Position numbers and translations under genes: made by a program
Notes under the pieces: generated by a model
Databases searched by the model: none
Told to the model about the DNA's origin: nothing
What the model saw: the letters and a program-made list of their open reading frames with translations, nothing else
Part shown: positions 265 through 51,485 of the stretch, piece by piece
Position numbering within the stretch: position 1 is the stretch's first letter
Layout of the letters: each line of letters begins with the position of its first letter
NCBI GenBank assembly: GCA_964487375.1
Contig: CAZAQA010000009.1
Span: 47,747-111,746 of the forward strand
Reading direction: 5' to 3'
Origin: an uncultured Anaerolineae bacterium
GTDB lineage: Bacteria; Chloroflexota; Anaerolineae; JAADDB01
DNA length: 64,000 nt

Positions 265-3200
265 TCATTTCACCACCTGATAAATCACTACACCCCTGTT
301 TCGGTACACCACTTTCAGCAGCCCTCGCTCCACCATGCGGTCGAAGCGGGTAATCGCAGCGGGTGGGTACTGCTGACGCTCCAATTGGCCCACGTAGACA
401 TAGTGGATGTCCACCTGACGGATGATGGCCATGGTACGATTGATGTCCGACGTGTTCCAGAACTCCAGGGCCAACTGCTGGCGCGGCCCCGTCTGCCAGC
501 CATAGCGCTGCTCCCCCATCTGGTGCAGCCCCATGAACGTGGGCAATCCCGTGAAGGAAGCCACCCGGGTGCCCCCTTCACGGTAGTAGTCCAGCCGGGC
601 TTCGGCAATGGGCACCACCCGGGGCTCGTGGTCGAGCAGCCAGCGGATGGCCTCGTAATCCCACTTGAGCACGATGCGGTGCTGGGGGTCGGGCCAGGTA
701 TAGACACCGTACTTCATGTAGGCCATGCCGTCCAGGGTGCCGAAAGGTGGGCGTTCGCTCAGCCCTTCGGGGAAGCGGTCCTCCACCCGGGCCACCGTGC
801 CCACGACCAGGAACGTGAGGGAGGCGACCAGAAGCACTGCGAACACCGTCTGCCAGACCGTCCGTACTGTGGGCTTCCAACGAGGTATCGCCTCCCAGAT
901 GCGGGAGAGCCCAACCGCGGCCGCGAGGGCCAGCATGACCCAGGCCTGGATGTAGAACTTGAAGAGGGTGTTCATGCGCTTGAAATCCCCTCCCTGGAGG
1001 TGGTCCTTCAAATAGACGAATTCCACGCCAAAGAGGACCAGGAGGGCGGTGAAGGCCAGGAAAGTGGCAAAAACCACGCCGGCAGGGGCGTTCATTCTCA
1101 GGCTCAGTACCGCGGCAATGAAGAGGGGGAGGAGAAGCACCGCGGGCACCCGGTAGCCAGCAAGCCACAGAAGAGGGGTGAGAATAGCGAAAACGATGCC
1201 AAGTTGATAGCCAAAACTTGACACCTGATACGAACGCTCTGCGCCAGGATGTCGGGCCCTGGAAAGGAGACGTTGGAGGCGCAGAAAACGGGGCAGCCGC
1301 TCGTAGTGAACGACAAGCGCCCGCAATCCGCGGGCCAGCGGCAACCGATCCCGCCGGGTCAACTCCACAGCCAGGAAGCTGAACGCCAGGAAGAGCCAGA
1401 ATCCCCAGATGTTCAGCCATTTGCCCAGGGAAGTCTTCTGCGGGGCCCAACCGACGCCCGAGGCCGCGATGGGTTTGTAGTGGCTGAAGAAAGGCCTATA
1501 GAGCAGATAAGCGCCCACCAGGATGAAGCCTACCTGGACGGCCCACAGCCCCCAACTTATTCGCTTTCGAGTCCGCCACTGGCGCAGGAAAAGAGCCACA
1601 GCCAGTACTCCCAGGTACGTGGGCAGGTCCCAAGTGTTGATGACGGCCAGTGCACCCAGCCCCAAGGGCAAGAGGGCAAACTGCACCAGTCCTGCCCAAA
1701 ATCCTTCGGTAAACCAGAAACGCCGTGCGCCTATGATGAGATTATAAGCCATCCCCAAAACGACGATCGTGAAGGGAATGCCCATCATGTGAGGGTGCAG
1801 GTCCGCGAAGAGGAAGGACCAGTACGGAAACTCGTTGATGGTGTAGGGAATGACGCGACTGGGAAGCCAGTAGTTGTACTTGGGCATCACGGCCTCATGG
1901 GCCAACACTTTGCTGAGTCCGACCAAAGCACGCACCCACGTCTGCAACCAGGGAAAGATGCTGCGGAAATCGGAACCGCTCACCTGGGCCAGATTGCGCA
2001 AAATGAGTCCCAGGCCGTCCAGGTTGCCGAAGAGGGCCACGAACGCGGCGCCGATGAGGCCCGCCCACCGTGCAGACCGGGGAGCCCAGTCGGAGACCAT
2101 ATCGTACACCAGAGCACACGCGGCCAACACGGTCAGCGCGAAGAGGGTGGGCACGGCCAGGTTGAACGCCACGGTGGGGGTGATGCCCGTCAATTTGATG
2201 AGCACGTTGACAATCTGGTAGCCCCAGTAGTAATAATTGATAGTCCCACCGGCAAAGTAAGGGTCATAGGGTGGAAAGTAAGGAGTGCGAACGGTCGCGT
2301 TCAGGAAGGCGATCTCCATGAACTTCTCGCCCCCGTTCCAGGGCTGCCACAGGTCCGGGTTCAACAAGCGAATGAAGACGAAGGCGAGATACGCGGCGGC
2401 AAACAGCCCTTCATAAAAGAGAAGGAGCCGCCTGTTCTGTTGGACGAAGGAGCGAAGTTTTTCCCAATGGCGTCGGGCCAGCCAAGCGTTCAGGAGCGTC
2501 ACGATGACCAGAACGGTCAAAACCAGGGGCAGGTCGTTCGTCCACAACCGCAAGGAGGGCACGATCCAGGCCAGGTAAGCGACAACCAGCAACCCGACGC
2601 CGCGCGCGAACGCGTAGCCCCGGTCCCGCAGGTTGGAGAATCCAAGGAAAGTCATGGGCCAGGCAACGAGTCCGATGAGCGTGACGACGAACCACCAGAG
2701 CACAATGGCGGGCCACGTGTGTTCGCTCGCCCAGCGATTCCAGCGCCACCAGCGGACCACCGGCATTTCATCAAAATTCACGTTGAGCAGCAGGGAAGGT
2801 CCCTTTTTCTCTTCTGGCGGCGGTGGGGGGGCGGACGTTTTTTGGCCCTTCCCGAGGGAAGGGAGCAACTTGAAGATGCGCTGCAACAAGGTGGCCCCCC
2901 CGACATCCCAGTGCTTGGCGCCCTTCCAGGTGCCACCCAGCAGTCGGTTCCATTCCTCGTCACTCAGGTCCCGCACTTTTTTGTAGATGAGCACCCGTGG
3001 GTGGTCGTAGACCCAGAAGCTCTCATCCGCTCTGTCATCGGGGAAGACGAAGGGCCCCAGTTGCGGGTAATTGTGCACGTCCAGTACGCGCACAAACCCC
3101 AGTTGTCCGGCAAAGAAGAGCCGGTAGAAGCGGGTGGTCATGGGGTAGCGTTGGGGCAAGCGCGGGATGGACTTGTACAGCCGGGCCGTGGCGAAGATGT

Positions 3201-4983
3201 AATAGTCGGCCTGACGCAAGTTGTGTTTGATCACCTCGAATTTCTTGGCCCTGTCCTCATCGTACATGGGCATCGTGACGTAACGATAGCGTCCCGGGTT
3301 GGCGTTGGGCTCGGGCAGGGGCAGGGGAAGTTGTCGATCCCAGTGCTCCACAGCCAAGCCGGCACCGTCGGGGATATGGGCGTAAATCCAACGGGAGGCG
3401 ACAATCCACGGATGTGTGTGGTCATATACCCCATGCACGAACGCCAGGGACCAGAAGATGGCGTGGGCGAGCACGACACCTGTCAGCAAACAGCCTGCCC
3501 AATACCTCATGCCTGAGATCCGATGCCTGAGATCCGATATCCTGTTATAGGCACCGGGTACAGGATATCGGGTGCCGGATATCGAAGACAGCAAGCCTAC
3601 GCCGAAGATAATGAGCGCGGGCACGATGGGCAAGGTGTAGCGCATGAACTTGGCCAGAAAGAGCCCGGTTGGGCCGAAGTAGAACACCACCCAGGCCAGA
3701 AGCATCCACTCGCCCGGCCACAGGCGACGGCGCGCAGCCTGCACGAAGGCCCAGGCCAATCCCAGCCATCCCAAGAGCCCCAACGCCCAACCCATGCCCC
3801 AGCGGATGGACTGGTTGATGTGATAGAGATATGGAATCGTGCCCCGGTACTGACGCGTGAAGGGGAAATCCGCGTCGCCCCGCACCATGGCTCCCTGTTC
3901 GACGAGAACCGCTTGCCTAAAGTTAGGCCAATCGAGGATGACATAGGGGGAGGTGAGGGCGAAGACGACGGCCGCGGTGCCAAAGGCCAGGATAAGGAGT
4001 TTGATGATGGAAAGAGGACGATAGGCGATAGACGATGGACCGGGGTGGCCCTGTCGTCCACCGTCCACCGTCCATCGTCTGTGCAGCAAATATGTCGCAA
4101 TGAGCGGCGCTACGATAATAGGCAAGGCGCTAAACTTGCTGGCGATGGCCAGGGCCATGCCCACGCCTGTGAGCACTGCGTCACGCGGGCGTCCCTCTTC
4201 GGCCATGCGCATGCCGCCGTACACGGCCAGCATGGTGAATGTGGTGGACATGGGATCCACGGCAAAAAAGTGGGCCAACTGTATTTGCGTCACGGTGAAG
4301 GTGGAAAGGGCCGCGGCCAGTAATCCCCACCATTTTTCGTACAGACGACGGGCAATCAGGTAGACCAGAAAGACGGTCAGGGTGTCACTCAGGGCCATGA
4401 GCAAGCGTCCCACGAACGCGAACCCGGGCGGGCTGGTGGCGGTGCGCAGCATCTGAACCGTCTCCGAGGAAGCGCCCAGGGCCTTGGCCGCGGGGGCCAG
4501 ATGTTTCGCTCCGTTGGCCGTTAGGACTAACAAATACAGGGGGAAGTGGCCGTAAGTATAGGAACGGCGACGGTTCGTGTTCACGTCCCAGAGCGGGTTC
4601 AAGGTGGACTTGTGGGGCTTGAGGATGTCGCTCAGATGCTCAGGCCAGTGGATGGTCGGCGCGTAAAAGGCCACCGTGGAAAGTTCGTCTGGATGGGCAA
4701 GCTGGCCTTCGTCCCACATGACATGGTACGTCCGCAGGTAGAGAGCAACGAGCAGCACCAAGAGGACGAGCACGGGGTGAAGTCGGTCGCGCCAGGCACG
4801 GCCGGAGAGCGGGATAGCCGGTTCCGGCGGGGTCGGGGGCGAATTCTGTCCCCGGGACGGAGCGAATCCAGACGCGTGTTCCTCGCCTTCGGCGATCTGC
4901 TGGGACTTCTCTGTGACCTGGGTCTCCATGATAAGCGTTGGCATCCTCAGATTAGTGAGAGTGAACCGGGCTTGACAAGCCAC
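265..4983 (-). CDS. Very large (about 1560-1572 aa) polytopic membrane protein, GT-C fold / glycosyltransferase family 39 (PMT/ArnT-like) or DUF2298-like
   Basis: Single uninterrupted 1572-aa ORF. Dozens of hydrophobic segments rich in W/Y/F/L. N-terminal region resembles PMT_2/ArnT-type GT-C modules (runs of TM helices with short D/E-containing loops). Internal proline/lysine-rich hydrophilic loop (PPPPPEEKKGP). Alternative starts are GTG 4983, ATG 4944 and ATG 4929. Antisense long ORFs on the + strand were judged high-GC artefacts. Confidence 0.7.
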   Translation of the reverse strand: MACQARFTLTNLRMPTLIMETQVTEKSQQIAEGEEHASGFAPSRGQNSPPTPPEPAIPLSGRAWRDRLHPVLVLLVLLVALYLRTYHVMWDEGQLAHPDELSTVAFYAPTIHWPEHLSDILKPHKSTLNPLWDVNTNRRRSYTYGHFPLYLLVLTANGAKHLAPAAKALGASSETVQMLRTATSPPGFAFVGRLLMALSDTLTVFLVYLIARRLYEKWWGLLAAALSTFTVTQIQLAHFFAVDPMSTTFTMLAVYGGMRMAEEGRPRDAVLTGVGMALAIASKFSALPIIVAPLIATYLLHRRWTVDGGRQGHPGPSSIAYRPLSIIKLLILAFGTAAVVFALTSPYVILDWPNFRQAVLVEQGAMVRGDADFPFTRQYRGTIPYLYHINQSIRWGMGWALGLLGWLGLAWAFVQAARRRLWPGEWMLLAWVVFYFGPTGLFLAKFMRYTLPIVPALIIFGVGLLSSISGTRYPVPGAYNRISDLRHRISGMRYWAGCLLTGVVLAHAIFWSLAFVHGVYDHTHPWIVASRWIYAHIPDGAGLAVEHWDRQLPLPLPEPNANPGRYRYVTMPMYDEDRAKKFEVIKHNLRQADYYIFATARLYKSIPRLPQRYPMTTRFYRLFFAGQLGFVRVLDVHNYPQLGPFVFPDDRADESFWVYDHPRVLIYKKVRDLSDEEWNRLLGGTWKGAKHWDVGGATLLQRIFKLLPSLGKGQKTSAPPPPPEEKKGPSLLLNVNFDEMPVVRWWRWNRWASEHTWPAIVLWWFVVTLIGLVAWPMTFLGFSNLRDRGYAFARGVGLLVVAYLAWIVPSLRLWTNDLPLVLTVLVIVTLLNAWLARRHWEKLRSFVQQNRRLLLFYEGLFAAAYLAFVFIRLLNPDLWQPWNGGEKFMEIAFLNATVRTPYFPPYDPYFAGGTINYYYWGYQIVNVLIKLTGITPTVAFNLAVPTLFALTVLAACALVYDMVSDWAPRSARWAGLIGAAFVALFGNLDGLGLILRNLAQVSGSDFRSIFPWLQTWVRALVGLSKVLAHEAVMPKYNYWLPSRVIPYTINEFPYWSFLFADLHPHMMGIPFTIVVLGMAYNLIIGARRFWFTEGFWAGLVQFALLPLGLGALAVINTWDLPTYLGVLAVALFLRQWRTRKRISWGLWAVQVGFILVGAYLLYRPFFSHYKPIAASGVGWAPQKTSLGKWLNIWGFWLFLAFSFLAVELTRRDRLPLARGLRALVVHYERLPRFLRLQRLLSRARHPGAERSYQVSSFGYQLGIVFAILTPLLWLAGYRVPAVLLLPLFIAAVLSLRMNAPAGVVFATFLAFTALLVLFGVEFVYLKDHLQGGDFKRMNTLFKFYIQAWVMLALAAAVGLSRIWEAIPRWKPTVRTVWQTVFAVLLVASLTFLVVGTVARVEDRFPEGLSERPPFGTLDGMAYMKYGVYTWPDPQHRIVLKWDYEAIRWLLDHEPRVVPIAEARLDYYREGGTRVASFTGLPTFMGLHQMGEQRYGWQTGPRQQLALEFWNTSDINRTMAIIRQVDIHYVYVGQLERQQYPPAAITRFDRMVERGLLKVVYRNRGVVIYQVVK

Positions 4984-36860: not shown

Positions 36861-37069
36861 GAACGAGGCGCCTCCCGTACACCGTTGACCCATTCTATAT
36901 GCAAATGAAGGCTTTGCCAAACAATCTCCGTCCATCAAAACGACGCCTTAAGTCTACGTCTGGTTTCCCTAAGCCTTCCGAAGGATTGCCCGATTTCCGG
37001 CCCCGGTCTATCATTGGAACCGTCGAACCGTTCACAATGACTCAAGGTCGGGAAAGGACGGGGTTGCCC

Positions 37070-39107: not shown

Positions 39108-40733
39108 TCAGTCCTCTCCGAAGATGTCCGTCAGCGCACTGTCAAAGTCCATCGGCGGGGGCGCCTCTCCCCCCAGGGGCGTTTGCATGGCCCGATAGAA
39201 GGTTTCGTCGTACTCACGAGTGCGCAGGAGAATGGGCATAGGCACCGCATGCCCCATGATGAGCACCTGCTTCTTCGTCTCCAGACTTTCGAGGGCTCCG
39301 CGCACGGCCTGCCGCCCCGCCACCCCGGTGAGCACGGCGTCAATGTCCGCGTCCTCGGTCAACTTCCCGGTCACGCGCGTGCCCAACTGGGAGAGAACCT
39401 CCCGGTCGATGCCACTTGGCCGCTGGTCAATGACCAACAGGGTGACATTGTACTTACGCATTTCCCGGGCAATGGTGCCGAAAATCGTCTGCTGCGCCAC
39501 TTGGGGGCTGAGGAATTTGTGCGCCTCTTCAATGGTAATCATCAGGGGGACAGGCTTATCTGCCGCCTGCCTGCTCTCCTGATAACGCTCCATTTTTTTC
39601 TGGTACGCCTGACGTACCCGCCGGGTGATGATGTTGGCCACGAGCATGTGATCGAGCATGCCTGTGTTGGGGGGAAAATGAAGGATGACATGGGTTCTAC
39701 GGTCGATAAGGGCAAGCATCTCATCCACCGCCCGCTGGTCTGCATGCTCCACCACGTAAGGGCGGCGGCGAATGCGCATCAAGGCCCGGCGCAGTGCAGC
39801 CACGGACGCGGGATGGGCGCCACTCCGGCTGCAGAAATCGTCGATGGCCGCGTTATCCATGTTTAGGAGTGTGCCCAGCCATTCCTCACGGAAGTGGTCC
39901 ACCAGTAAATCCACCGTGGTCGTGGCTTTCTCCGTCAGGCTGAGCTCCTCGGAGAGGAGCAAGATGTCCTCAGGCTCTATCTGGTCCAGCCCGATTTGAA
40001 CGTGACGGTCGGCGTTGCGATTGTTTGCGTCCAGGGACCAGACCTGTACACGGGTTGGGAAAAGCTCTTTCAACCCCTTGACCCATATTCCCTCTTCGGA
40101 CTCCTTGCCGAACGCGTACTCGTCGTGCATGTCGAAGACGAGATTAACGCCCACCTTGCGGTGAATGACGCCGCAAAGGAGGAGCCGGGCCAGGAAGGAC
40201 TTCCCCGTCCCAGATTGTCCGAAAATGCCGTTGGAGCGCTCCATGAGCCGCCGCAAATCAATGGCCACAGGGATATCCGATGTCAGAGGGGTACCGATGC
40301 TAAAGCGATGATCGGAATTGGTGTCCTCGCCGAAGACTTGACGGTAATCATCCTCGCCAGCCTCTCGCAAGAGGGAGAAGTGGCCGGGAATGGTGCGCAC
40401 GGGGCGGACCCGCTCGGTGGGATCGATGAAGGGGACGTCCTCTTGCCGGGGAAGCATGAGCATGGGTTTGACCTGGGCCACAGCATACGTGCCGGTCCCT
40501 GCCAGCGCTCGAGCCGTCAACGACTTCCGATCTTGAGGCGGCTCGGCCATCAAGTTGGCATCGGTCACTTGCAACTGTAGATCGGCTATCATGCTAAAGT
40601 AAAGGTACGTTTGTCCCTCGATGACGACGAAATCACCGATGCGCACCTGCTCCGTGTTCACCTCCGCATCCAGCCGGACGGAGAGACTCGCGTTGAAGGC
40701 ACCGCCGGTCACCACTCCCAAACGTTGTGTCAT
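39108..40733 (-). CDS. herA: HerA-like ATPase (DUF87 / HAS-barrel plus FtsK-HerA-type P-loop NTPase)
   Basis: N-terminal HAS-barrel-like segment GVVTGGAFNASLSVRLDAEVNTEQVRIGDFVVIEGQTYLYFSMI. Walker A GQSGTGKS. Walker B/DEAH-like PLMITIEEAHKFL. Downstream TLLVIDQRPS typical of HerA/FtsK. Acidic C-tail. Confidence 0.65.
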   Translation of the reverse strand: MTQRLGVVTGGAFNASLSVRLDAEVNTEQVRIGDFVVIEGQTYLYFSMIADLQLQVTDANLMAEPPQDRKSLTARALAGTGTYAVAQVKPMLMLPRQEDVPFIDPTERVRPVRTIPGHFSLLREAGEDDYRQVFGEDTNSDHRFSIGTPLTSDIPVAIDLRRLMERSNGIFGQSGTGKSFLARLLLCGVIHRKVGVNLVFDMHDEYAFGKESEEGIWVKGLKELFPTRVQVWSLDANNRNADRHVQIGLDQIEPEDILLLSEELSLTEKATTTVDLLVDHFREEWLGTLLNMDNAAIDDFCSRSGAHPASVAALRRALMRIRRRPYVVEHADQRAVDEMLALIDRRTHVILHFPPNTGMLDHMLVANIITRRVRQAYQKKMERYQESRQAADKPVPLMITIEEAHKFLSPQVAQQTIFGTIAREMRKYNVTLLVIDQRPSGIDREVLSQLGTRVTGKLTEDADIDAVLTGVAGRQAVRGALESLETKKQVLIMGHAVPMPILLRTREYDETFYRAMQTPLGGEAPPPMDFDSALTDIFGED

Positions 40734-40797
40734 AGCCGATGACCCCCTTCATGCCATTCTGTTCTCGTGAAGCCGTCCCTCGGAAAGGCCATCTCTC

Positions 40798-41427
40798 TTA
40801 TCCTTCCTCTAACGCCTCCAAGGCCGCGCGCAAACGATCGTAATCCCGCTTGAGGAGACTGGCAATGTGTCGGGCCACCTCCTCGAGCCACGCTGCATCT
40901 TCCCCCCGGGCCCGATAGGCCTCACGAACATGGGCCGCGAGGAGTTGTTCCGGGGGCACAGGGGTTTGTGACGCCAGCAGGAGGCGCAGATAGCGCAGAT
41001 CCTCGCTGAAGCGGATCACATCGGTGTTAGATGCGCGATATACCGCGTAGTGCAAAGGAGGCGGCTGGGGAGGAAGATGGCGACGGAGCACCCCGGACGC
41101 GCTCTCATATCCCACCAGCAAGGCGGTAAATTCCGTGCGCAAGATATCCGCCAGTTGTGGGTTCTCGTGGTACACGCGCTCATCGACGACATTGCCCCGG
41201 GTGCGCACAATGGCCTGACGCCCCGCATCCAGGCCGGCAGTGGTCCCAAACGAGACTACCGCAAACACACGGCCGCCGTCGGGCACATGGGCCCAGACCA
41301 GGCTGCCCAGGTTAGGAGGCTGAACGGGCCGGGGCATTTCCCCGTCATTCCGCTCCACCAGACGCTGGGCCGTCAAGTACAGGCTGGTCGTGACGATGAT
41401 TTCACCCACCGGCAAAGTCACTTGCAC
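40798..41427 (-). CDS. Hypothetical protein (209 aa) sandwiched between nurA-like and herA-like genes
   Basis: Co-directional, with 64-nt and 131-nt gaps. No motif recognised. C-terminal helical acidic tail. Confidence 0.5.
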   Translation of the reverse strand: MQVTLPVGEIIVTTSLYLTAQRLVERNDGEMPRPVQPPNLGSLVWAHVPDGGRVFAVVSFGTTAGLDAGRQAIVRTRGNVVDERVYHENPQLADILRTEFTALLVGYESASGVLRRHLPPQPPPLHYAVYRASNTDVIRFSEDLRYLRLLLASQTPVPPEQLLAAHVREAYRARGEDAAWLEEVARHIASLLKRDYDRLRAALEALEEG

Positions 41428-41558
41428 CTCCCTCCCTGATGCTCCAGATGAGACGACAGGCGGAACAACTCCCTCTATTGCCGCTATTCCCCTAACCGTT
41501 CAGTACGAACGGGATGACCGTTCCCATGCGCCCCTACTCCGTGCCCGCTGGATGTAGG

Positions 41559-42752
41559 TCAGATGCCGCGAACTCGCTTGCTCCAGTCCTTCATCGAACG
41601 CGTGTAAGCAACCCCCGACCGGGCCAGTGTCTGTTCGATCAGCACCTCGACCATGCGCCGATCGGCCGTGCTGATGACCGCCTGCTCGTGAGCTTCCTGG
41701 AGGGCGGGGGGATACCCGCCGCCACGACGACACTGGTCAACGATGAGCGCGTGGACGAGGTTTCGGGCATACTCATCTTGCATAACCCAGGCAGGCCCCT
41801 CAACGCGAGCAATCTCTTTCCCCGTGTGCAGGTAGAAAAATTGAATCCGCTGATCGATATCTTCTTCCAGCGAATAGCGATCCAACAGTGCCGAACTGCT
41901 GTCGAAGAGAGCGCTCCGTTCCCCAGGCTGCAAAAGTCCAGAAAAAAGCTCCCGGTCCCGCATCAGGGCCAGCCACTCACAGAACTCGACCACCTCTGGA
42001 GCGCATTCTTCGCAGGAACGCAGGTCCGTCAACTGCGGACACTGGCCACACAACCAAATGCGCAAGCTGTTGATGACATCCCGGGCGCCGGGATAGGAGA
42101 TGTAGCTGGCCAGGGGCACGCCGACGTCATGGAAAGCTCGCAAAACACGCTGCAACCGGGGGAGCAGCACACCCTGCAGAGCCGGGTCCTCACTTTGCAG
42201 GGGCCAGAAAATCAGGGATCCATCACGCAAGGCAATCGCGGGGAGCTCTGCCTCACGAGCCAACCCGGCCAATGTCTCCAGCTCTTCCAGGGCCATAATA
42301 ATGCCCAAGATCGCCCCCTGGATGGGGTACAGGAGACCATTGATCCCACGAACGTGAAGCTCCTCTTCCCGATAGCGAAGGGTCCCACGACTATCCAAAT
42401 GCGCTGACGGATGTCTACCGTAACGGAGACGTACCCGTCCCATGTTCAACACCAGGAAGCGCACCGGGCTGTGCCGATCAGGGGCCATGTGGGAGCCATC
42501 TGTGGCCAGAACGGCGTGATCACGCGGTGCGTCCGGGGCAGGATAATGAGCGCCGGGCGGTTCGTCCGTGGGACGGGCAACCAGCCAGGGCACTCGATCC
42601 CGCACCTGTTCGATCTTTGAGCGTAGAGCCTCCCCGTCGAGGGACCGCAGCAAGGCCCGAGCCTCCTGTGTCCGCCCAGATCGGACGCGCTCGGCGGTCA
42701 TCCGAACCAGCTCCCGAACCGCGTCGTTCAGGTTCTCGATGCGCAGGACCAT
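41559..42752 (-). CDS. nurA: NurA-like nuclease domain protein
   Basis: Two DGS-type motifs characteristic of NurA 5'-3' nucleases (AVLATDGSHM near residue 90 and ALRDGSLIFWP near residue 170). Adjacent herA-like ATPase as in archaeal and Deinococcus/Thermus nurA-herA pairs. Identity is inferred from motifs and context only. Confidence 0.55.
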   Translation of the reverse strand: MVLRIENLNDAVRELVRMTAERVRSGRTQEARALLRSLDGEALRSKIEQVRDRVPWLVARPTDEPPGAHYPAPDAPRDHAVLATDGSHMAPDRHSPVRFLVLNMGRVRLRYGRHPSAHLDSRGTLRYREEELHVRGINGLLYPIQGAILGIIMALEELETLAGLAREAELPAIALRDGSLIFWPLQSEDPALQGVLLPRLQRVLRAFHDVGVPLASYISYPGARDVINSLRIWLCGQCPQLTDLRSCEECAPEVVEFCEWLALMRDRELFSGLLQPGERSALFDSSSALLDRYSLEEDIDQRIQFFYLHTGKEIARVEGPAWVMQDEYARNLVHALIVDQCRRGGGYPPALQEAHEQAVISTADRRMVEVLIEQTLARSGVAYTRSMKDWSKRVRGI

Positions 42753-42956
42753 GACGGTGCTCCTCCACGGGAAGAAAGGCCACTCCCATCCTTCCCATCG
42801 AACAGATGTACACGTCCATTATATGCCGTTGCGAGCGAAAAGCAAGGCGTCGCGTCCCGACTACATCGCAGGCATCGGCAGCGGGGGCCTGCGTGGCGAA
42901 ACGGTTCACGGGGTGATTGAAGGGGAAAAGTAACGTGCCAGGCTCGTCTTGCCAAT

Positions 42957-43655
42957 TCATCCTTTGATTTCTGCTTCCCACACCCGGCGTATCTCCTTCT
43001 CGCCAACCGGGCCCGACCGCAGGATGACCGGCTCGGAACCGGTGCAATCAACGACGGTGGAGGGCTGTCCCCCAGGGGCAGGGCCGGCATCCAAAACCAG
43101 GGGGACGCGTTCGCCCATGCTGGTCACGACCTCCTGGGCGCTCAAGGCGGGGGGATGTCCACTCAGGTTGGCGCTGGTGGCAGCCAGGGGACGACGCAAA
43201 CGGCGAATGAGAGTACGTAACCAGTCATGGTTGGGAATGCGCACACCGACGGTATCTTTCCCCTCTCGTAGAATCGAAGGAAGCTCCGGGCGCGCGGGCA
43301 ACACCAGAGTCAGAGGACCGGGCCAAAACGCCCGTGCCAGCCGATGCGCCGGCGCCGGGAAGGAACGGATGACAAACCACACGTCCTCGATGTCGGCCAG
43401 GAGAACCGGAATGGGCTGCGAGCGCGGGCGCTCCTTGATGATGTAAAGTCGTTCCACGGCTTCGGGGTTCAGGGCGTCCGCTGCCAACCCGTATACCGTA
43501 TCCGTGGGCACGACGGCCACATGACCGGAACGCAAGAAAGAGAGGGCCAGTGCCATGGCATCGGGTTCTTCGATATGCTTGATGATGGTCTTGTGGCGTA
43601 CCGGATACTCCACCGTATGACCTCGCGCGCTGCCCGATGTACCGACTGCCGTCAT
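42957..43655 (-). CDS. tsaC: L-threonylcarbamoyladenylate synthase (TsaC/YrdC/Sua5 family)
   Basis: VVPTDTVYGLAAD, ERLYIIKERPRSQPIPVLL and LAATSANLSGHPP motifs. The true start is probably internal (near 43556 or an upstream GTG). Confidence 0.8.
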   Translation of the reverse strand: MTAVGTSGSARGHTVEYPVRHKTIIKHIEEPDAMALALSFLRSGHVAVVPTDTVYGLAADALNPEAVERLYIIKERPRSQPIPVLLADIEDVWFVIRSFPAPAHRLARAFWPGPLTLVLPARPELPSILREGKDTVGVRIPNHDWLRTLIRRLRRPLAATSANLSGHPPALSAQEVVTSMGERVPLVLDAGPAPGGQPSTVVDCTGSEPVILRSGPVGEKEIRRVWEAEIKG

Positions 43656-43818: not shown

Positions 43819-44607
43819 TCAAGGGGGGATAGTTTTCCTCTCTCGCCACCGTTGTTTGAGAACCAACCAGGCAAATTGGGGCAGGGCCATCTGTCGCCGC
43901 CAGCGCCGAGGCTCCAGTGCCAGGCGCCACAACCACTCCAGGCCCACCTGTCTGACGACTTTCGGAGCCCGCCTTTGGACCCCGGTGATGAAGTCGAAGG
44001 CCCCGCCGACCCCGATAGCGACGTGAGTTCGCACGTGGGGCAAATTGCGCGCGATCCAACGTTCTTGTTTCGGGGCCCCATAAGCCACCAGCACGATATC
44101 GGGCTTCACGCTGTTGATGTGGGCGCGTACACACTCGTCGTATGCCGGCCCGGGATCGCCGGCCTCGGCGCCAACGACCTGCAAGCCGGGGTAACGGGAC
44201 TGGAGACGAATGGCCGCCCGAGCGGCCACTCCAGGGGCCGCGCCGAGAAAGTAAAGCCGCCACCCTTCACGCGCCGCGCGCTCGGCAATGCGAGGTACGC
44301 CATCAGAACCCGTCACACGTTCTGGGATGGCATGTCCCAGAAGCCGCGCCGCCCAGAGCACGCCAATACCATCCGGCCAGACCATGGCAGCCCCTCGTAA
44401 GATACGAAGATAGTCCGGATCCCGCCGGGCGCGCATGATGATCTCCGGGTTGGCCGTGACCACGTAGCCTTGGGCCTCGAGGGCGATCATCGTCGCCAAC
44501 CTCTCCAACGCCTGAGCAAAGGTCAGACGGTGAACGGGCACGCCCAGGATGTCCACAGGAGCCGGGTCGACAGTCAGGTTTGGGTGAGAGTGAAAGGAGG
44601 ATCTCAT
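43819..44607 (-). CDS. WecB/TagA/CpsF family glycosyltransferase (GT26)
   Basis: LGVPVHRLTFAQALE...WPDGIGVLWAARLLG...YGAPKQERWI signature of UDP-ManNAc(A)/ManNAc transferases. Confidence 0.8.
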   Translation of the reverse strand: MRSSFHSHPNLTVDPAPVDILGVPVHRLTFAQALERLATMIALEAQGYVVTANPEIIMRARRDPDYLRILRGAAMVWPDGIGVLWAARLLGHAIPERVTGSDGVPRIAERAAREGWRLYFLGAAPGVAARAAIRLQSRYPGLQVVGAEAGDPGPAYDECVRAHINSVKPDIVLVAYGAPKQERWIARNLPHVRTHVAIGVGGAFDFITGVQRRAPKVVRQVGLEWLWRLALEPRRWRRQMALPQFAWLVLKQRWRERKTIPP

Positions 44608-45764
44608 GGTGTCCCTGCTCTGGCCGCACGCTCCAACACGCGCCCCACTTGCAGTGCCGTCTTCTTCCAGGAGAATCGGGGGACATTCTCCCGGCCTCGA
44701 CAGCTAAGCAGGACGCGCAAGCCAGGATCCTGCAGGAGCCGTCGAATGGCTTGCGTCATCCCTTCGACGTCTTCCGGGTCGACCAGCAAGGCCCCGTCGC
44801 CCGCCACCTCGGGCAGGCTGGATACGCGAGATGTCAGGACAGGCACGTCGAGGGCCTGAGCTTCCAGCACAGGGAAGCCAAATCCCTCGTAAAGGGAGGG
44901 GAAGAGCAAGGCCACAGCACCGGCCAGCAGAGGACCCAGGTTCTCGTCGGGCACGTAGCCCAGCAGGTGCACCCGAGCGCTCACGTCGGCCTCGCGCACG
45001 CGTTGCAGGATGGGCCCGGAAAGCCACCCACGCTTGCCGGCCAACACCAGGTGGGCAGGGTCCCGGGTATATCCCCCCTCGTCGATGAACGGGACCTCTT
45101 GCACCCGGACAAACGCGTCAAGGAGGCGCAGGAGATTCTTGCGCGGGTGCAGGGTGCCGATGAAGAGGAAATAGGGGGCGGAGAGGCGATAGACTTTTCG
45201 GACACGCCGTATCTCCGCGGCGGTCGGCCGGGGAGGCCGCGAGAGACCGGGATAGACGACCCTAATCTTGGCCATGGGGATGTGGTAGAGAGTGGTCAGA
45301 TCGTGAGCTGTCGCCCGGGAATCGACAATGACCTGCTGAGCGCGTCGGGCACTGTGGCGGGTACTCCACCGTAAGTACCAACGTTGCCCACGAGGGTGCG
45401 CGTCGGGGAAGTGTTCATACCCCAGATCGTGGACGGTCACAACAATGGGCACGAGAGGTGGGGGGAAGATCGGCACCACGTGGGCAGGGATAAACAACAC
45501 ATCGGGGGGATGTCGCCAAAGTTCGCGGGCCAGAGCCAGGTGCGTCCACAGTCGGGGAGAAAGCAGACGGCGCACACGCACATGAGCGGGCCAGTCCGTC
45601 AGGCCAAACTCGGAAGGGGCCAGGGGAAGACGTGTGTAGAGGCGCACCTGGTGCCCTGTGGTTCGGTAGAGGGAGATCAGGTGACCGATGAGCTCACGGC
45701 TGTAGGTTTCCGTGCCCGTACGTGCCCCTGACCGGACACGGCTGGCATCTATCCCTATGATCAT
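44604..45764 (-). CDS. Glycosyltransferase family 4 (GT-B, RfaB-like)
   Basis: IGIDASR N-terminus. C-terminal EGFGFPVLEAQALDVPVLTS motif (E-x7-E). Start ATG 45764 (alternative 45821). Overlaps the TagA-like start by 4 nt. Confidence 0.8.
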   Translation of the reverse strand: MIIGIDASRVRSGARTGTETYSRELIGHLISLYRTTGHQVRLYTRLPLAPSEFGLTDWPAHVRVRRLLSPRLWTHLALARELWRHPPDVLFIPAHVVPIFPPPLVPIVVTVHDLGYEHFPDAHPRGQRWYLRWSTRHSARRAQQVIVDSRATAHDLTTLYHIPMAKIRVVYPGLSRPPRPTAAEIRRVRKVYRLSAPYFLFIGTLHPRKNLLRLLDAFVRVQEVPFIDEGGYTRDPAHLVLAGKRGWLSGPILQRVREADVSARVHLLGYVPDENLGPLLAGAVALLFPSLYEGFGFPVLEAQALDVPVLTSRVSSLPEVAGDGALLVDPEDVEGMTQAIRRLLQDPGLRVLLSCRGRENVPRFSWKKTALQVGRVLERAARAGTP

Positions 45765-46089
45765 GTTCGAAGCGTACTCAGAAATCCGTTCGAGGGCAAA
45801 TGGACGCCCGATTTGCCTCATTCCGGTCGGGGGTGGCCGGACGAGGGTTCCCGGGGCCAGGCAGAACCAGCGCCTGAAAGCCGGTCATCCCCCAACAACC
45901 GGCTATTCAGGCGCTGGACCCAACCCCATTATAGAGGCAACTCGCAAAAACGCGCAAAATTGACTCCCTCGCGCTGAGACTTCCGGGTATCTGCTGTCAA
46001 AGCACTCCGTGGCGCTCGTCCCCTGCCCATCCTCCTTGGAGCCGATCTCGGTGGAGCTGATCTCGGGCATATCCGTCGTGGACGGCGTA

Positions 46090-50330: not shown

Positions 50331-51485
50331 TCAGGGCCCCAAAAGCTGCCGGTAGAGTGCAGCGATGCGTTCTGCCATCACCCCGGCATCGAACTCCTTC
50401 CGCGCTCGCTCACGAGCCGACCGCCCCATGCGGGCTCGCTCCGCCGGGTGAGAAAACAGGAAGTTCAGGGCCTCGGCCAACGCCCCAGGTGCCCCGGGAG
50501 GAACGACCCAACCGGTTTCCCCGTGCACGTTCACGAAGGAGGTGCCCGTCCCCAATTCCGTGCTGATGACGGGCAGGCCGCTGGCCATCGCCTCTACCAG
50601 GACCAGGCCAAAGGCCTCGGCGCGAGAGGTAGAAGGGAGAACAAAGAGGTCCGCCGCGGCATAATAGAGGGGAAGGTCGGCCTCAGGGACATTTCCCAGG
50701 AAGACCACCCGGCGGTCGAGTCCCAGACGCCGGGCCAACTGACGCCACGGTTTCCCCATCGGCCCGGTGCCGATGACCCAGAGGTGTAGCTCGGGGACCT
50801 GGACCAAAGCGTGTAGAAGAACGTCCAGTCCTTTGTAATAGCGCAGCCGGCCGACGAACAAAGCCAGGGGAACATCGGCTTCCCGGCCCCACACGCGCTC
50901 GCGTATCGTGGCCGCCCGGGCCCGGTCCACATGCAAGAAAGGGGCCAGCTCGATCCCCAGAGGGATGGGATGAACGTCTCGGGCCACGGCTTGCAGCTCG
51001 GAGGATGAACGGGCATAAGCAGGGCTGCTGACGATGATGGCATCGGCCCTGGCAAGTACGCGGCGCAGCAAAGGGCGGTATAGACGTAGAATGCGCTGCT
51101 GCCGCACAACATCCGAGTGGTAGGTAATGACCGTCACGCGCGCCCGTCCCCAGAGGAGGTTGGCGATCTCCCCTGGGGGGTAGGGGAAGTGCAGGTGCGC
51201 CACGTCAGCGGTGAGCGTCGCTTGATAGAGGAGCTGACGAGGGCTGAGGGGGGTGGAAGCCACCGTAGCCAATCTGCCGGCACGCAGCACGCGCACGGGA
51301 CCGTCCTGTTCCACGCCAGTGCGAAGACTGTAAGGAAAAGGGGCAGGATTGGTCGCCAAGACGGTAACCTCAAACCCCTGCTGCACCTGACGGTGAGCCA
51401 GGGTGTGGATGTGTTTCTCCATGCCGCCCGCAACAGGGGGGAAATAGTCCTTATAAACGTGGAGAACCCGCAAAGGGCTGGACAT
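50331..51485 (-). CDS. Glycosyltransferase family 4
   Basis: LRVLHVYKDYFPPVAGGMEKH N-terminus. C-terminal EAFGLVLVEAMASGLPVISTE. Confidence 0.8.
   Translation of the reverse strand: MSSPLRVLHVYKDYFPPVAGGMEKHIHTLAHRQVQQGFEVTVLATNPAPFPYSLRTGVEQDGPVRVLRAGRLATVASTPLSPRQLLYQATLTADVAHLHFPYPPGEIANLLWGRARVTVITYHSDVVRQQRILRLYRPLLRRVLARADAIIVSSPAYARSSSELQAVARDVHPIPLGIELAPFLHVDRARAATIRERVWGREADVPLALFVGRLRYYKGLDVLLHALVQVPELHLWVIGTGPMGKPWRQLARRLGLDRRVVFLGNVPEADLPLYYAAADLFVLPSTSRAEAFGLVLVEAMASGLPVISTELGTGTSFVNVHGETGWVVPPGAPGALAEALNFLFSHPAERARMGRSARERARKEFDAGVMAERIAALYRQLLGP

Follow-up and report, generated by a model that had tools for sequence, protein, structure and literature searches.

A conserved free-standing HAS-barrel protein encoded next to nurA in Chloroflexota: candidate third subunit of a NurA-HerA system

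A minus-strand cassette encoding NurA, HerA and a small third protein

Here we describe three genes read from the minus strand of a 64,000-nucleotide stretch of DNA (the window) from an uncultured Anaerolineae bacterium. They encode a NurA-family RNase H-like nuclease of 397 aa (nurA, 41559..42752), a protein of 209 aa, or 207 aa if translation starts at the GTG at 41421 (X, 40798..41427), and a HerA/FtsK-superfamily hexameric DNA translocase ATPase of 541 aa (herA, 39108..40733). All three open reading frames lie exactly where an earlier note on this DNA had placed them. The spacers between them, on the same strand, measure 131 nt for nurA-X (41428..41558, with a ribosome-binding site for X read from the sequence at its 3' end) and 64 nt for X-herA (40734..40797), and the shared strand and these gaps make co-transcription plausible. 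The presumed promoter region, assigned by position only, is the 204 nt of minus strand upstream of the nurA start (42753..42956), up to the stop of a Sua5/YrdC gene; a consensus scan of this region gave no sigma-70-like site, and Rfam gave no match. Scans of the whole cassette with Rfam and for promoters and terminators likewise returned nothing beyond chance, the four terminator-like matches comparing with 3.3 expected from shuffling. The herA stop (39108) lies 10 bp from the stop of a convergent epimerase gene (39097), as previously remarked, and GC3 of the cassette genes (0.69-0.74) resembles that of adjacent genes.

The NurA-like identity proposed from two DGS motifs, present at residues 85 and 177, is confirmed by a match to the entire Pfam NurA profile (PF09376; 3.6e-28, 99.2 bits, cutoff 21, model positions 1-254 of 254), and the NCBI label on orthologs is “DNA double-strand break repair nuclease NurA”. 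Residues D85, D177 and H355 are kept in all 62 orthologs taken from the loci, with E157 present in 59 of them; H355 is also nearly invariant in a 48-sequence alignment (A4). NurA further carries a conserved four-Cys insertion that may bind metal. By analogy with the D-E-D-H residues of archaeal NurA, and without superposition, these four positions probably form the RNase H-like catalytic set. An AF2 model of the protein (pLDDT 90.7) has bacterial NurA from T. maritima as its best Foldseek match among PDB folds (1ZUP, E 6.2e-6), with RNase H, PIWI and RuvC folds ranking next. The fold matches have low TM-scores (0.32 and 0.41), the top 50 Foldseek matches include neither archaeal NurA nor drNurA, and a search of the PDB sequences gave no match.

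The ATPase matches Pfam DUF87 (PF01935) at 1.6e-25 and carries the motifs GQSGTGKS, IEEAH and LLVIDQRP previously read from it (residues 172, 401 and 432, respectively), with Walker A (G172-S179), Walker B (E402-H405) and D436-Q437-R438-P439 kept in at least 97% of 34 orthologs. Nine of nine matches among PDB sequences are HerA-type, including HerA of S. solfataricus (4D2I, 8.6e-14) and HerA-NurA of T. kodakarensis (9X1L, 9.4e-13); Deinococcus drHerA was not matched in this search. The earlier assignment to the HerA type rather than to VirB4/TraC also holds, since HerA models reach about 1e-23 against 2.5e-4 for VirB4, 0.02 (0.022) for TraC and 0.05 for the TraG P-loop, and TraB, like VirB4 and TraC, scores far below the HerA models. 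The curated NCBIfam HerA equivalogs fall short of their cutoffs (NF040937, 82 bits vs 800; NF042943, 81 vs 800; NF040819, 71 vs 970), the archaeal HerA equivalog giving 82 bits against 800 and HerA_antiphage 81 against 800, both at about 1e-23. Among the PADLOC models, those for HerA align with the C-terminal half (best 1.3e-28). Judged by these profile scores, the window protein is HerA-like and lies outside every curated HerA subfamily. The HAS-barrel-like N-terminus described for it earlier is supported by precomputed PF09378 matches in several close orthologs, whereas the window protein itself stays just under the threshold (residues 5-54, 24.2 bits, cutoff 25.2, E 3.7e-5).

Predicted fold and family of protein X

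The HAS-barrel (PF09378) forms the N-terminal crown in HerA as well as in F1/V1/FliI ATPases. Protein X, correctly described before as uncharacterised, has no match in Pfam, NCBIfam, PADLOC or PHROGs; the Pfam HAS-barrel profile does not match the window sequence even at E<1, and the X profile found nothing among PDB sequences. The predicted architecture comprises a beta-barrel (residues ~6-131) followed by a helical C-terminal domain (134-208), and the motif LPPQPPPLH is invariant. Among the structural matches of X the HerA-specific ones rank first, with longer alignments, and HAS domains of anti-phage HerAs match the fold. At the family level, the Pfam HAS-barrel profile matches 49 of 150 X-family representatives at E<=0.01 (best 1.8e-8), and it matches the Rhodothermales homolog at 2.2e-4. 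The top 150 representatives include no fusion to an ATPase. The modelled fold of X is thus that of a HAS-barrel standing free of any ATPase: in every HerA or other ATPase matched this barrel is the N-terminal domain of the ATPase, whereas X has the barrel alone, with a helical domain of ~75 residues after it. The family is conserved and unannotated, and comprises about 876 clusters at 50% identity.

An hhalign comparison of X residues 1-126 with HerA residues 2-133, using a 150-member alignment, was collinear but marginal (P=0.04), and one of X with its cognate HerA, using an ortholog alignment, was negative (probability 0.2%). Because these results are negative or only marginal, X is ruled out as a recent duplicate of the adjoining herA. 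Net charges of X, the HerA N-terminus and NurA, compared in the hope of predicting the interface from the Deinococcus case, were uninformative.

Gene linkage and genomic context in relatives

The neighbourhood of X is conserved with respect to nurA, which lies directly upstream of it in 75 loci from Chloroflexota classes and one Rhodothermales (overall range: Anaerolineae, Caldilineae, Ardenticatenales, Thermomicrobiales, Chloroflexia, Ktedonobacterales and the single Rhodothermales). The median gap is 24 nt, and the pair is translationally coupled through a stop/start overlap of 4 or 1 nt in 23 of the 75. This adjacency persists down to 28-45% identity while all other neighbours change. Linkage of herA is looser: the gene is adjacent to nurA-X (<=50 nt) in 16 loci, displaced by 0.27-5.3 kb of inserted genes in 21, and absent within at least 2.5 kb in 24; herA orthologs stand alone in L085 and L086, and locus L087 has one in a tight operon. 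Linkage to nurA is therefore closer for X than for herA, and, because nurA directly precedes X while herA is often displaced or absent nearby, NurA and X can be regarded as an obligate pair. All three proteins co-diverge (r = 0.84-0.91), X with HerA at r = 0.91. The earlier note had missed both the free-standing HAS-barrel and the closer coupling of X to nurA than to herA. A search for another conserved partner downstream of X in the herA-less loci yielded only unrelated genes (ABC transporter, R-M methylase, dehydrogenase, PGM, PMT), and a 543-aa open reading frame upstream of the Rhodothermales nurA, considered as a HerA candidate, is an M28 peptidase.

The cassette had been described as embedded in a polysaccharide-biosynthesis locus. 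This holds only loosely: two epimerase/dehydratases occupy one flank and Sua5, WecG-GT and GT4 the opposite one, but the window at large carries general housekeeping genes. In other genomes the module does not have the genes that flank it here, and because the flanks differ in every lineage, an insertion into a sugar locus was rejected; the cassette has no flanking repeats, att sites, adjacent tRNA or integrase, and its GC content is uniform. Neither the window nor the neighbour censuses contain ICE, conjugation or mobility genes; integrase, transposase and defence families are missing from the top 25 of those censuses, and X is missing from plasmids, phages and viral contigs (IMG/VR). With uniform GC, no scars, housekeeping neighbours and no X on mobile elements, the idea of a cassette interrupting a sugar cluster, in an accessory or defence-type context, was not upheld.

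Across loci the neighbours are mostly housekeeping genes. SbcD/Mre11, a double-strand-break repair nuclease, is the most recurrent upstream neighbour (17 of 53 loci, in nine of them within 450 bp on the opposite strand), also lies downstream of herA in two loci, and is the sole recurrent functional neighbour of the module; its match to TIGR00619 scores 150.9 bits (cutoff 77.65). Neither sbcD/mre11 nor rad50/sbcC occurs within the window itself. A 705-aa neighbour of SbcD was considered as Rad50/SbcC and rejected, having no SMC or AAA matches and only weak NHL-repeat similarity. PIN, HepT (TA-like) and R-M methylase genes adjoin the module in some loci. Repair and defence had both been regarded as possible roles; the SbcD/Mre11 and housekeeping context clearly favours repair over defence.

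A possible third subunit and competing explanations

In archaea NurA-HerA carries out end resection, and its bacterial forms are still poorly understood. To our knowledge, all characterised NurA-HerA versions have two components, the nuclease docking on the HAS-barrel of HerA.

Like drNurA-HerA of D. radiodurans (PDB 7F6D) and NurA-HepA of T. thermophilus, the genes described here are chromosomal, with nurA preceding herA on one strand, and the systems have in common an RNase H-like NurA and a HerA ring ATPase with an N-terminal HAS-barrel (probable in the window protein), which in the Deinococcus complex is the NurA docking face (PMC9960219). The Thermus nurA-herA pair likewise sits among metabolic genes, and in Oceanithermus SbcCD is linked, much as SbcD is in many Chloroflexota loci. 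In Deinococcus and Thermus, however, there are two genes with overlapping nurA stop and herA start, whereas in Chloroflexota a third conserved gene, X, is in the coupled place, with herA frequently displaced or unlinked; since the Thermus herA start overlaps the nurA stop (PMC5448004), X sits in the usual position of herA. The archaeal herA-mre11-rad50-nurA operon contains the same two enzyme families, and an Mre11/SbcD-type nuclease is linked in relatives of the present locus, but Rad50 is not linked, Mre11 is not in the window, and the archaeal operon lacks X. Sir2-HerA, DUF4297-HerA and TdpAB also combine a HerA-type ATPase with a nuclease, their effector docking on the HAS domain; in the case of DUF4297 these domains touch each other around the ring (PMC11291478). 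Unlike those systems, the cassette has no Sir2, DUF4297 or TdpB, the adjacency of nuclease and HerA is not strict, there is no defence-island or mobile context, and neither NurA nor X has a PADLOC match.

The constant pairing of this free HAS-barrel with NurA throughout the phylum suggests that X is an undescribed third subunit rather than part of an anti-phage cassette. We favour, with confidence somewhat above even, a chromosomal, vertically inherited three-component NurA-HerA DNA-end-processing system of Chloroflexota, with X as a HAS-barrel subunit that binds NurA. Going by homology with the complexes of archaea and Deinococcus, HerA would be the ring ATPase translocating dsDNA and NurA the RNase H-like nuclease cutting the strands that HerA feeds to it. 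The barrel of X shares the fold of the HerA N-terminal collar, the docking site of NurA and of other HerA effectors, and has the helical domain after it in place of the ATPase; X would bind NurA through a HAS-barrel-type interface as its dedicated subunit. It may then act as an adaptor or collar linking a NurA dimer with the HerA ring, perhaps in trans where herA lies elsewhere. Physical NurA-X binding, its stoichiometry and a role in double-strand-break resection are what we infer from these homologies and linkages. A conserved, unannotated family of free HAS-barrels tied to nurA would add a third player to these machines, give a name and a hypothesis to a family of “hypothetical proteins” across Chloroflexota, and make it testable how the docking of nucleases on HerA-type motors is organised or regulated, a question that also concerns the Sir2-HerA and DUF4297-HerA defence complexes, whose docking face is the same. 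It also cautions that not every bacterial HerA cassette is a defence system.

An unlikely competitor holds that X is a HerA mimic, a decoy HAS-barrel that sequesters or chaperones the NurA dimer and keeps it inactive until HerA or DNA damage displaces X, which would make X an antagonist and not a bridge. The structural and linkage data are identical for this proposal and for the adaptor model, and nothing separates the two. The frequent absence of linkage between herA and nurA-X would suit a factor that manages NurA without the motor, and HerA probably retains a HAS-barrel of its own, so that X would not be needed as a missing docking domain. Set against this, no toxin-antitoxin-like signature was seen, and the co-divergence of X with HerA (r = 0.91) fits a ternary complex as well. 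Considerably less probable is anti-phage defence of the HerA-plus-effector type (like Sir2-HerA and DUF4297-HerA), with NurA as effector and X as sensor or assembly factor. HerA does pair with many defence effectors, the PADLOC HerA models match the C-terminal half (1.3e-28), HerA_antiphage equals archaeal HerA at about 1e-23, and the flanking genes vary among genomes, with PIN, HepT or R-M methylase beside the module in some. Yet HerA_antiphage, at 81 bits, falls short of its cutoff of 800, PADLOC matches neither NurA nor X, and most loci break the strict effector-HerA adjacency of defence systems; censuses dominated by housekeeping genes and SbcD, the absence of X from plasmids, phages and IMG/VR, a phylum-wide range with co-divergence, uniform GC and the lack of insertion scars all argue in the same direction.

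That X is an independent small protein, for instance a beta-barrel nucleic-acid- or ribosome-associated factor merely carried on the nurA transcript, is more improbable still, given 75 loci in which nurA-X adjacency is kept down to 28-45% identity while other neighbours change, the HerA-specific structural matches ranking first, the Pfam HAS-barrel found in 49 of 150 family members, and co-divergence of X with both NurA and HerA. Very little weight falls on a module for DNA transfer, as in Thermus transjugation, instead of repair. T. thermophilus does use a HerA-like ATPase, TdtA, in DNA donation, and a mutant in a second NurA homolog has a transjugation defect equal to that of the hepA mutant (PMC5365140; PMC5448004); in the present case, ICE, conjugation and mobility genes are absent from window and censuses, X is absent from plasmids, and VirB4, TraC and TraB models score far under those of HerA.

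Returning to X as a NurA-binding subunit, a more speculative version, which we hold only tentatively, treats it as a split-off HAS-barrel, forming a ring or collar on the NurA dimer and so making an autonomous, portable nuclease module. Such a module might work HerA-free, its ring encircling DNA passively to confer processivity, or might plug in trans into a HerA encoded elsewhere; if so, this three-part modular architecture would be one as yet undescribed for any HerA/FtsK-family machine.

Identity and genomic setting of the cassette

The cassette probably encodes a three-component NurA-X-HerA system, a variant of the known NurA-HerA, in which X is the product of the middle gene. Its minus-strand ORFs, herA (39108-40733, 541 aa), X (40798-41427, 209 aa) and nurA (41559-42752, 397 aa), lie where the earlier note had placed them and have coding-typical GC3 (0.69-0.74). 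The NurA-like and HerA-like identities proposed there are borne out by Pfam NurA (E 3.6e-28 across the full model) and HerA/DUF87 (1.6e-25), as are the HerA motifs GQSGTGKS, IEEAH and LLVIDQRP (at 172, 401 and 432) and the NurA DGS motifs (residues 85 and 177). Among orthologs, the Walker A, Walker B and DQRP positions of HerA are at least 97% conserved, and NurA D85, D177 and H355 are invariant, with E157 present in 59 of 62. The ATPase is not of the VirB4/TraC type, a possibility raised earlier: HerA models score ~1e-23 against 2.5e-4 to 0.02 for VirB4/TraC, and PDB sequence matches are all HerA. The Pfam HAS-barrel on HerA residues 5-54 scores slightly under threshold. The predicted NurA structure (pLDDT 90.7) is closest to 1ZUP, the bacterial NurA of T. 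maritima, followed by generic RNase H-like folds.

Residues 235-258 of the window NurA (41979-42050) contain five cysteines (235, 238, 247, 250 and 258) in a segment of lower pLDDT (75-79) than the rest. Four cysteine positions are conserved among orthologs (C235, the column aligned to L244, C247 and C258), and the segment could be an insertion that binds Zn or an Fe-S cluster; no mention of it was found in the NurA literature examined.

GC content is uniform across the window, and the cassette has no adjacent tRNA, flanking repeats or Rfam element. It is bordered on one side by an AI-2E transporter and two epimerase/dehydratases, and on the other by Sua5/YrdC, a WecG-type glycosyltransferase, a GT4 and glutamate dehydrogenase; farther genes encode fumarase, carboxyltransferase, acyl-CoA dehydrogenase, DAG kinase, amidase and Lon. 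Glycosyltransferase-type genes (a 1572-aa PMT_2/DUF2298 membrane protein, WecG and two GT4s) are scattered over 265-4983, 43819-45821 and 50331-51485, so there is no coherent polysaccharide operon for the cassette to split, contrary to the initial view that it interrupts a CDP-sugar/glycosyltransferase cluster. The two GT4s also weakly match the Pfam 'GT4-conflict' family. The called ORFs of the AI-2E transporter (-) and first epimerase (+) share 40 nt at their 5' ends (36899-36938); the Pfam domain of the epimerase does not begin until residue 70, so its start codon is probably a later one.

X as a member of a conserved HAS-barrel family

The window X has no match in Pfam, NCBIfam, PADLOC or PHROGs. 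Its homologs nevertheless place it in a well-conserved family: a word-indexed search returned at least 366, all annotated 'hypothetical' and, where named, from Anaerolineae/Chloroflexota, and an exhaustive profile search gave 876 clusters at 50% identity, nearly all of stand-alone proteins of 190-250 aa, with no ATPase fusion among the top 150 members. The Pfam HAS-barrel was matched by 49 of 150 diverse representatives (best 1.8e-8) and by a Rhodothermales homolog (2.2e-4), which supports a HAS-barrel assignment at the family level. HerA appears to retain its own HAS-barrel alongside X. Descent of X as a recent copy of the neighbouring herA was ruled out by hhalign, where one comparison with the cognate HerA was negative and the other collinear (X 1-126, HerA 2-133) and marginal (P=0.04).

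The start codon of X is ambiguous (41415-41440), with GTG 41427 giving 209 aa and GTG 41421 giving 207 aa. JGI gene calls use both, and the ribosome-binding site, GGGAGGGAGG, better fits the downstream GTG.

Linkage of nurA, X and herA

A scan with two peptide patterns over one genome per GTDB species, for which phylum prevalence is thus a lower bound, found 76 loci in Anaerolineae, Caldilineae, Ardenticatenales, Thermomicrobiales, Chloroflexia and Ktedonobacterales, plus one in Rhodothermales. All 75 loci that could be assessed have nurA immediately before X (median gap 24 nt), and in 23 the nurA stop overlaps the X start. The position of herA varies: 16 loci have it no more than 50 nt from X, in 21 it is set apart by 0.27-5.3 kb of intervening, unrelated genes, and in 24 no herA was found over 2.5 kb or more of downstream sequence, where the genes after X are unrelated. 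One complete Anaerolineae chromosome has the order nurA-X-(ydjC, small ORF, ridA)-herA. Two further loci (L085, L086) carry solitary herA orthologs with no nurA-X within 10 kb, and another (L087) has herA in a tight overlapping operon. Given this constant adjacency and variable herA position, the system is an obligate [NurA-X] pair with a looser [HerA]; the three proteins diverge in step, with correlations of r = 0.84-0.91 between their pairwise identities. Thermus differs in that its nurA stop overlaps with the start of herA (PMC5448004), whereas in Chloroflexota loci it is X that is coupled to nurA. No paper on NurA/HerA in Chloroflexota or on a free-standing HAS-barrel partner was found in a search whose library lacks many subscription-journal papers.

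Small inserted genes are frequent at the X-herA junction or herA flank (L003 8963-11238; L084 11949-13579; L001 10276-10976) and include a HepT-like toxin with DUF7986, a YdjC/RidA set and a PIN toxin-antitoxin pair; this junction seems tolerant of insertions, the nurA-X junction not. The lone herA of L086 (9221-11632) directly follows Sua5/YrdC, and the window (39108-43655) reads Sua5-nurA-X-herA, which suggests that nurA-X was gained or lost as a unit between Sua5 and herA. Outside Chloroflexota, a Rhodothermales MAG (L081 4667-6600) holds a nurA-X pair (35% and 28% identity) adjoining an M28 peptidase, with no herA nearby, which points to a two-gene module of older origin or to its horizontal transfer. 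A single ENA metagenomic ORF of the X family (P0267, 372 aa) joins the NurA C-terminal part (HMM positions 248-345) to a full X domain. It is either a frameshift or gene-calling artefact or a natural fusion, which would give Rosetta-stone support for a NurA-X interaction.

Possible roles of X and of the module

In the Deinococcus complex the HAS-barrel face of HerA is the NurA docking site (PMC9960219), and elsewhere DUF4297 docks on the HAS domain of HerA, whose HAS domains touch one another around the ring (PMC11291478). As the HAS-barrel is a docking face and X is translationally coupled to nurA, X is most simply read as a NurA-binding subunit. We somewhat favour a model in which X would act as an adaptor or collar joining the NurA dimer to the HerA ring, possibly permitting their coupling in trans. 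Less probably, X could instead be a decoy restraining NurA.

A defence system, one of the roles suggested earlier, is unlikely, because there is no defence effector and no PADLOC match for NurA or X, most loci separate the effector from the motor, and the context is non-mobile, with phylum-wide, vertical inheritance. No PLSDB plasmid, GenBank phage or IMG/VR contig carries X. The genes that flank the cassette in the window do not accompany the module in other genomes, and in the closest relatives (66-78% identity) it adjoins an ECF sigma factor and RNase III. In a Pfam census of the two nearest genes on each side (96 upstream and 121 downstream proteins), neighbour families are housekeeping, with no integrase, transposase or defence family in the top 25.

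The most frequent upstream family, Metallophos, represents a true SbcD/Mre11 (TIGR00619, 150.9 bits against a cutoff of 77.65; 6e-22 to T. maritima Mre11 structures). Of the 53 loci whose flank is long enough, 17 have it upstream and on the opposite strand, nine of them at a distance of no more than 450 bp, and in two further loci it lies downstream of herA. A role in double-strand break end resection would rest on homology and this SbcD linkage, since even in Deinococcus and Thermus what NurA-HerA does physiologically is described as controversial. In many relatives (L003 3070-6428, L029, L032, L036, L040, L057, L059 and L060), the gene after SbcD is not SbcC/Rad50; it encodes a conserved protein of ~705 aa that lacks any Pfam domain, shows weak NHL-repeat similarity at its C-terminus and could be an unusual SbcD partner.
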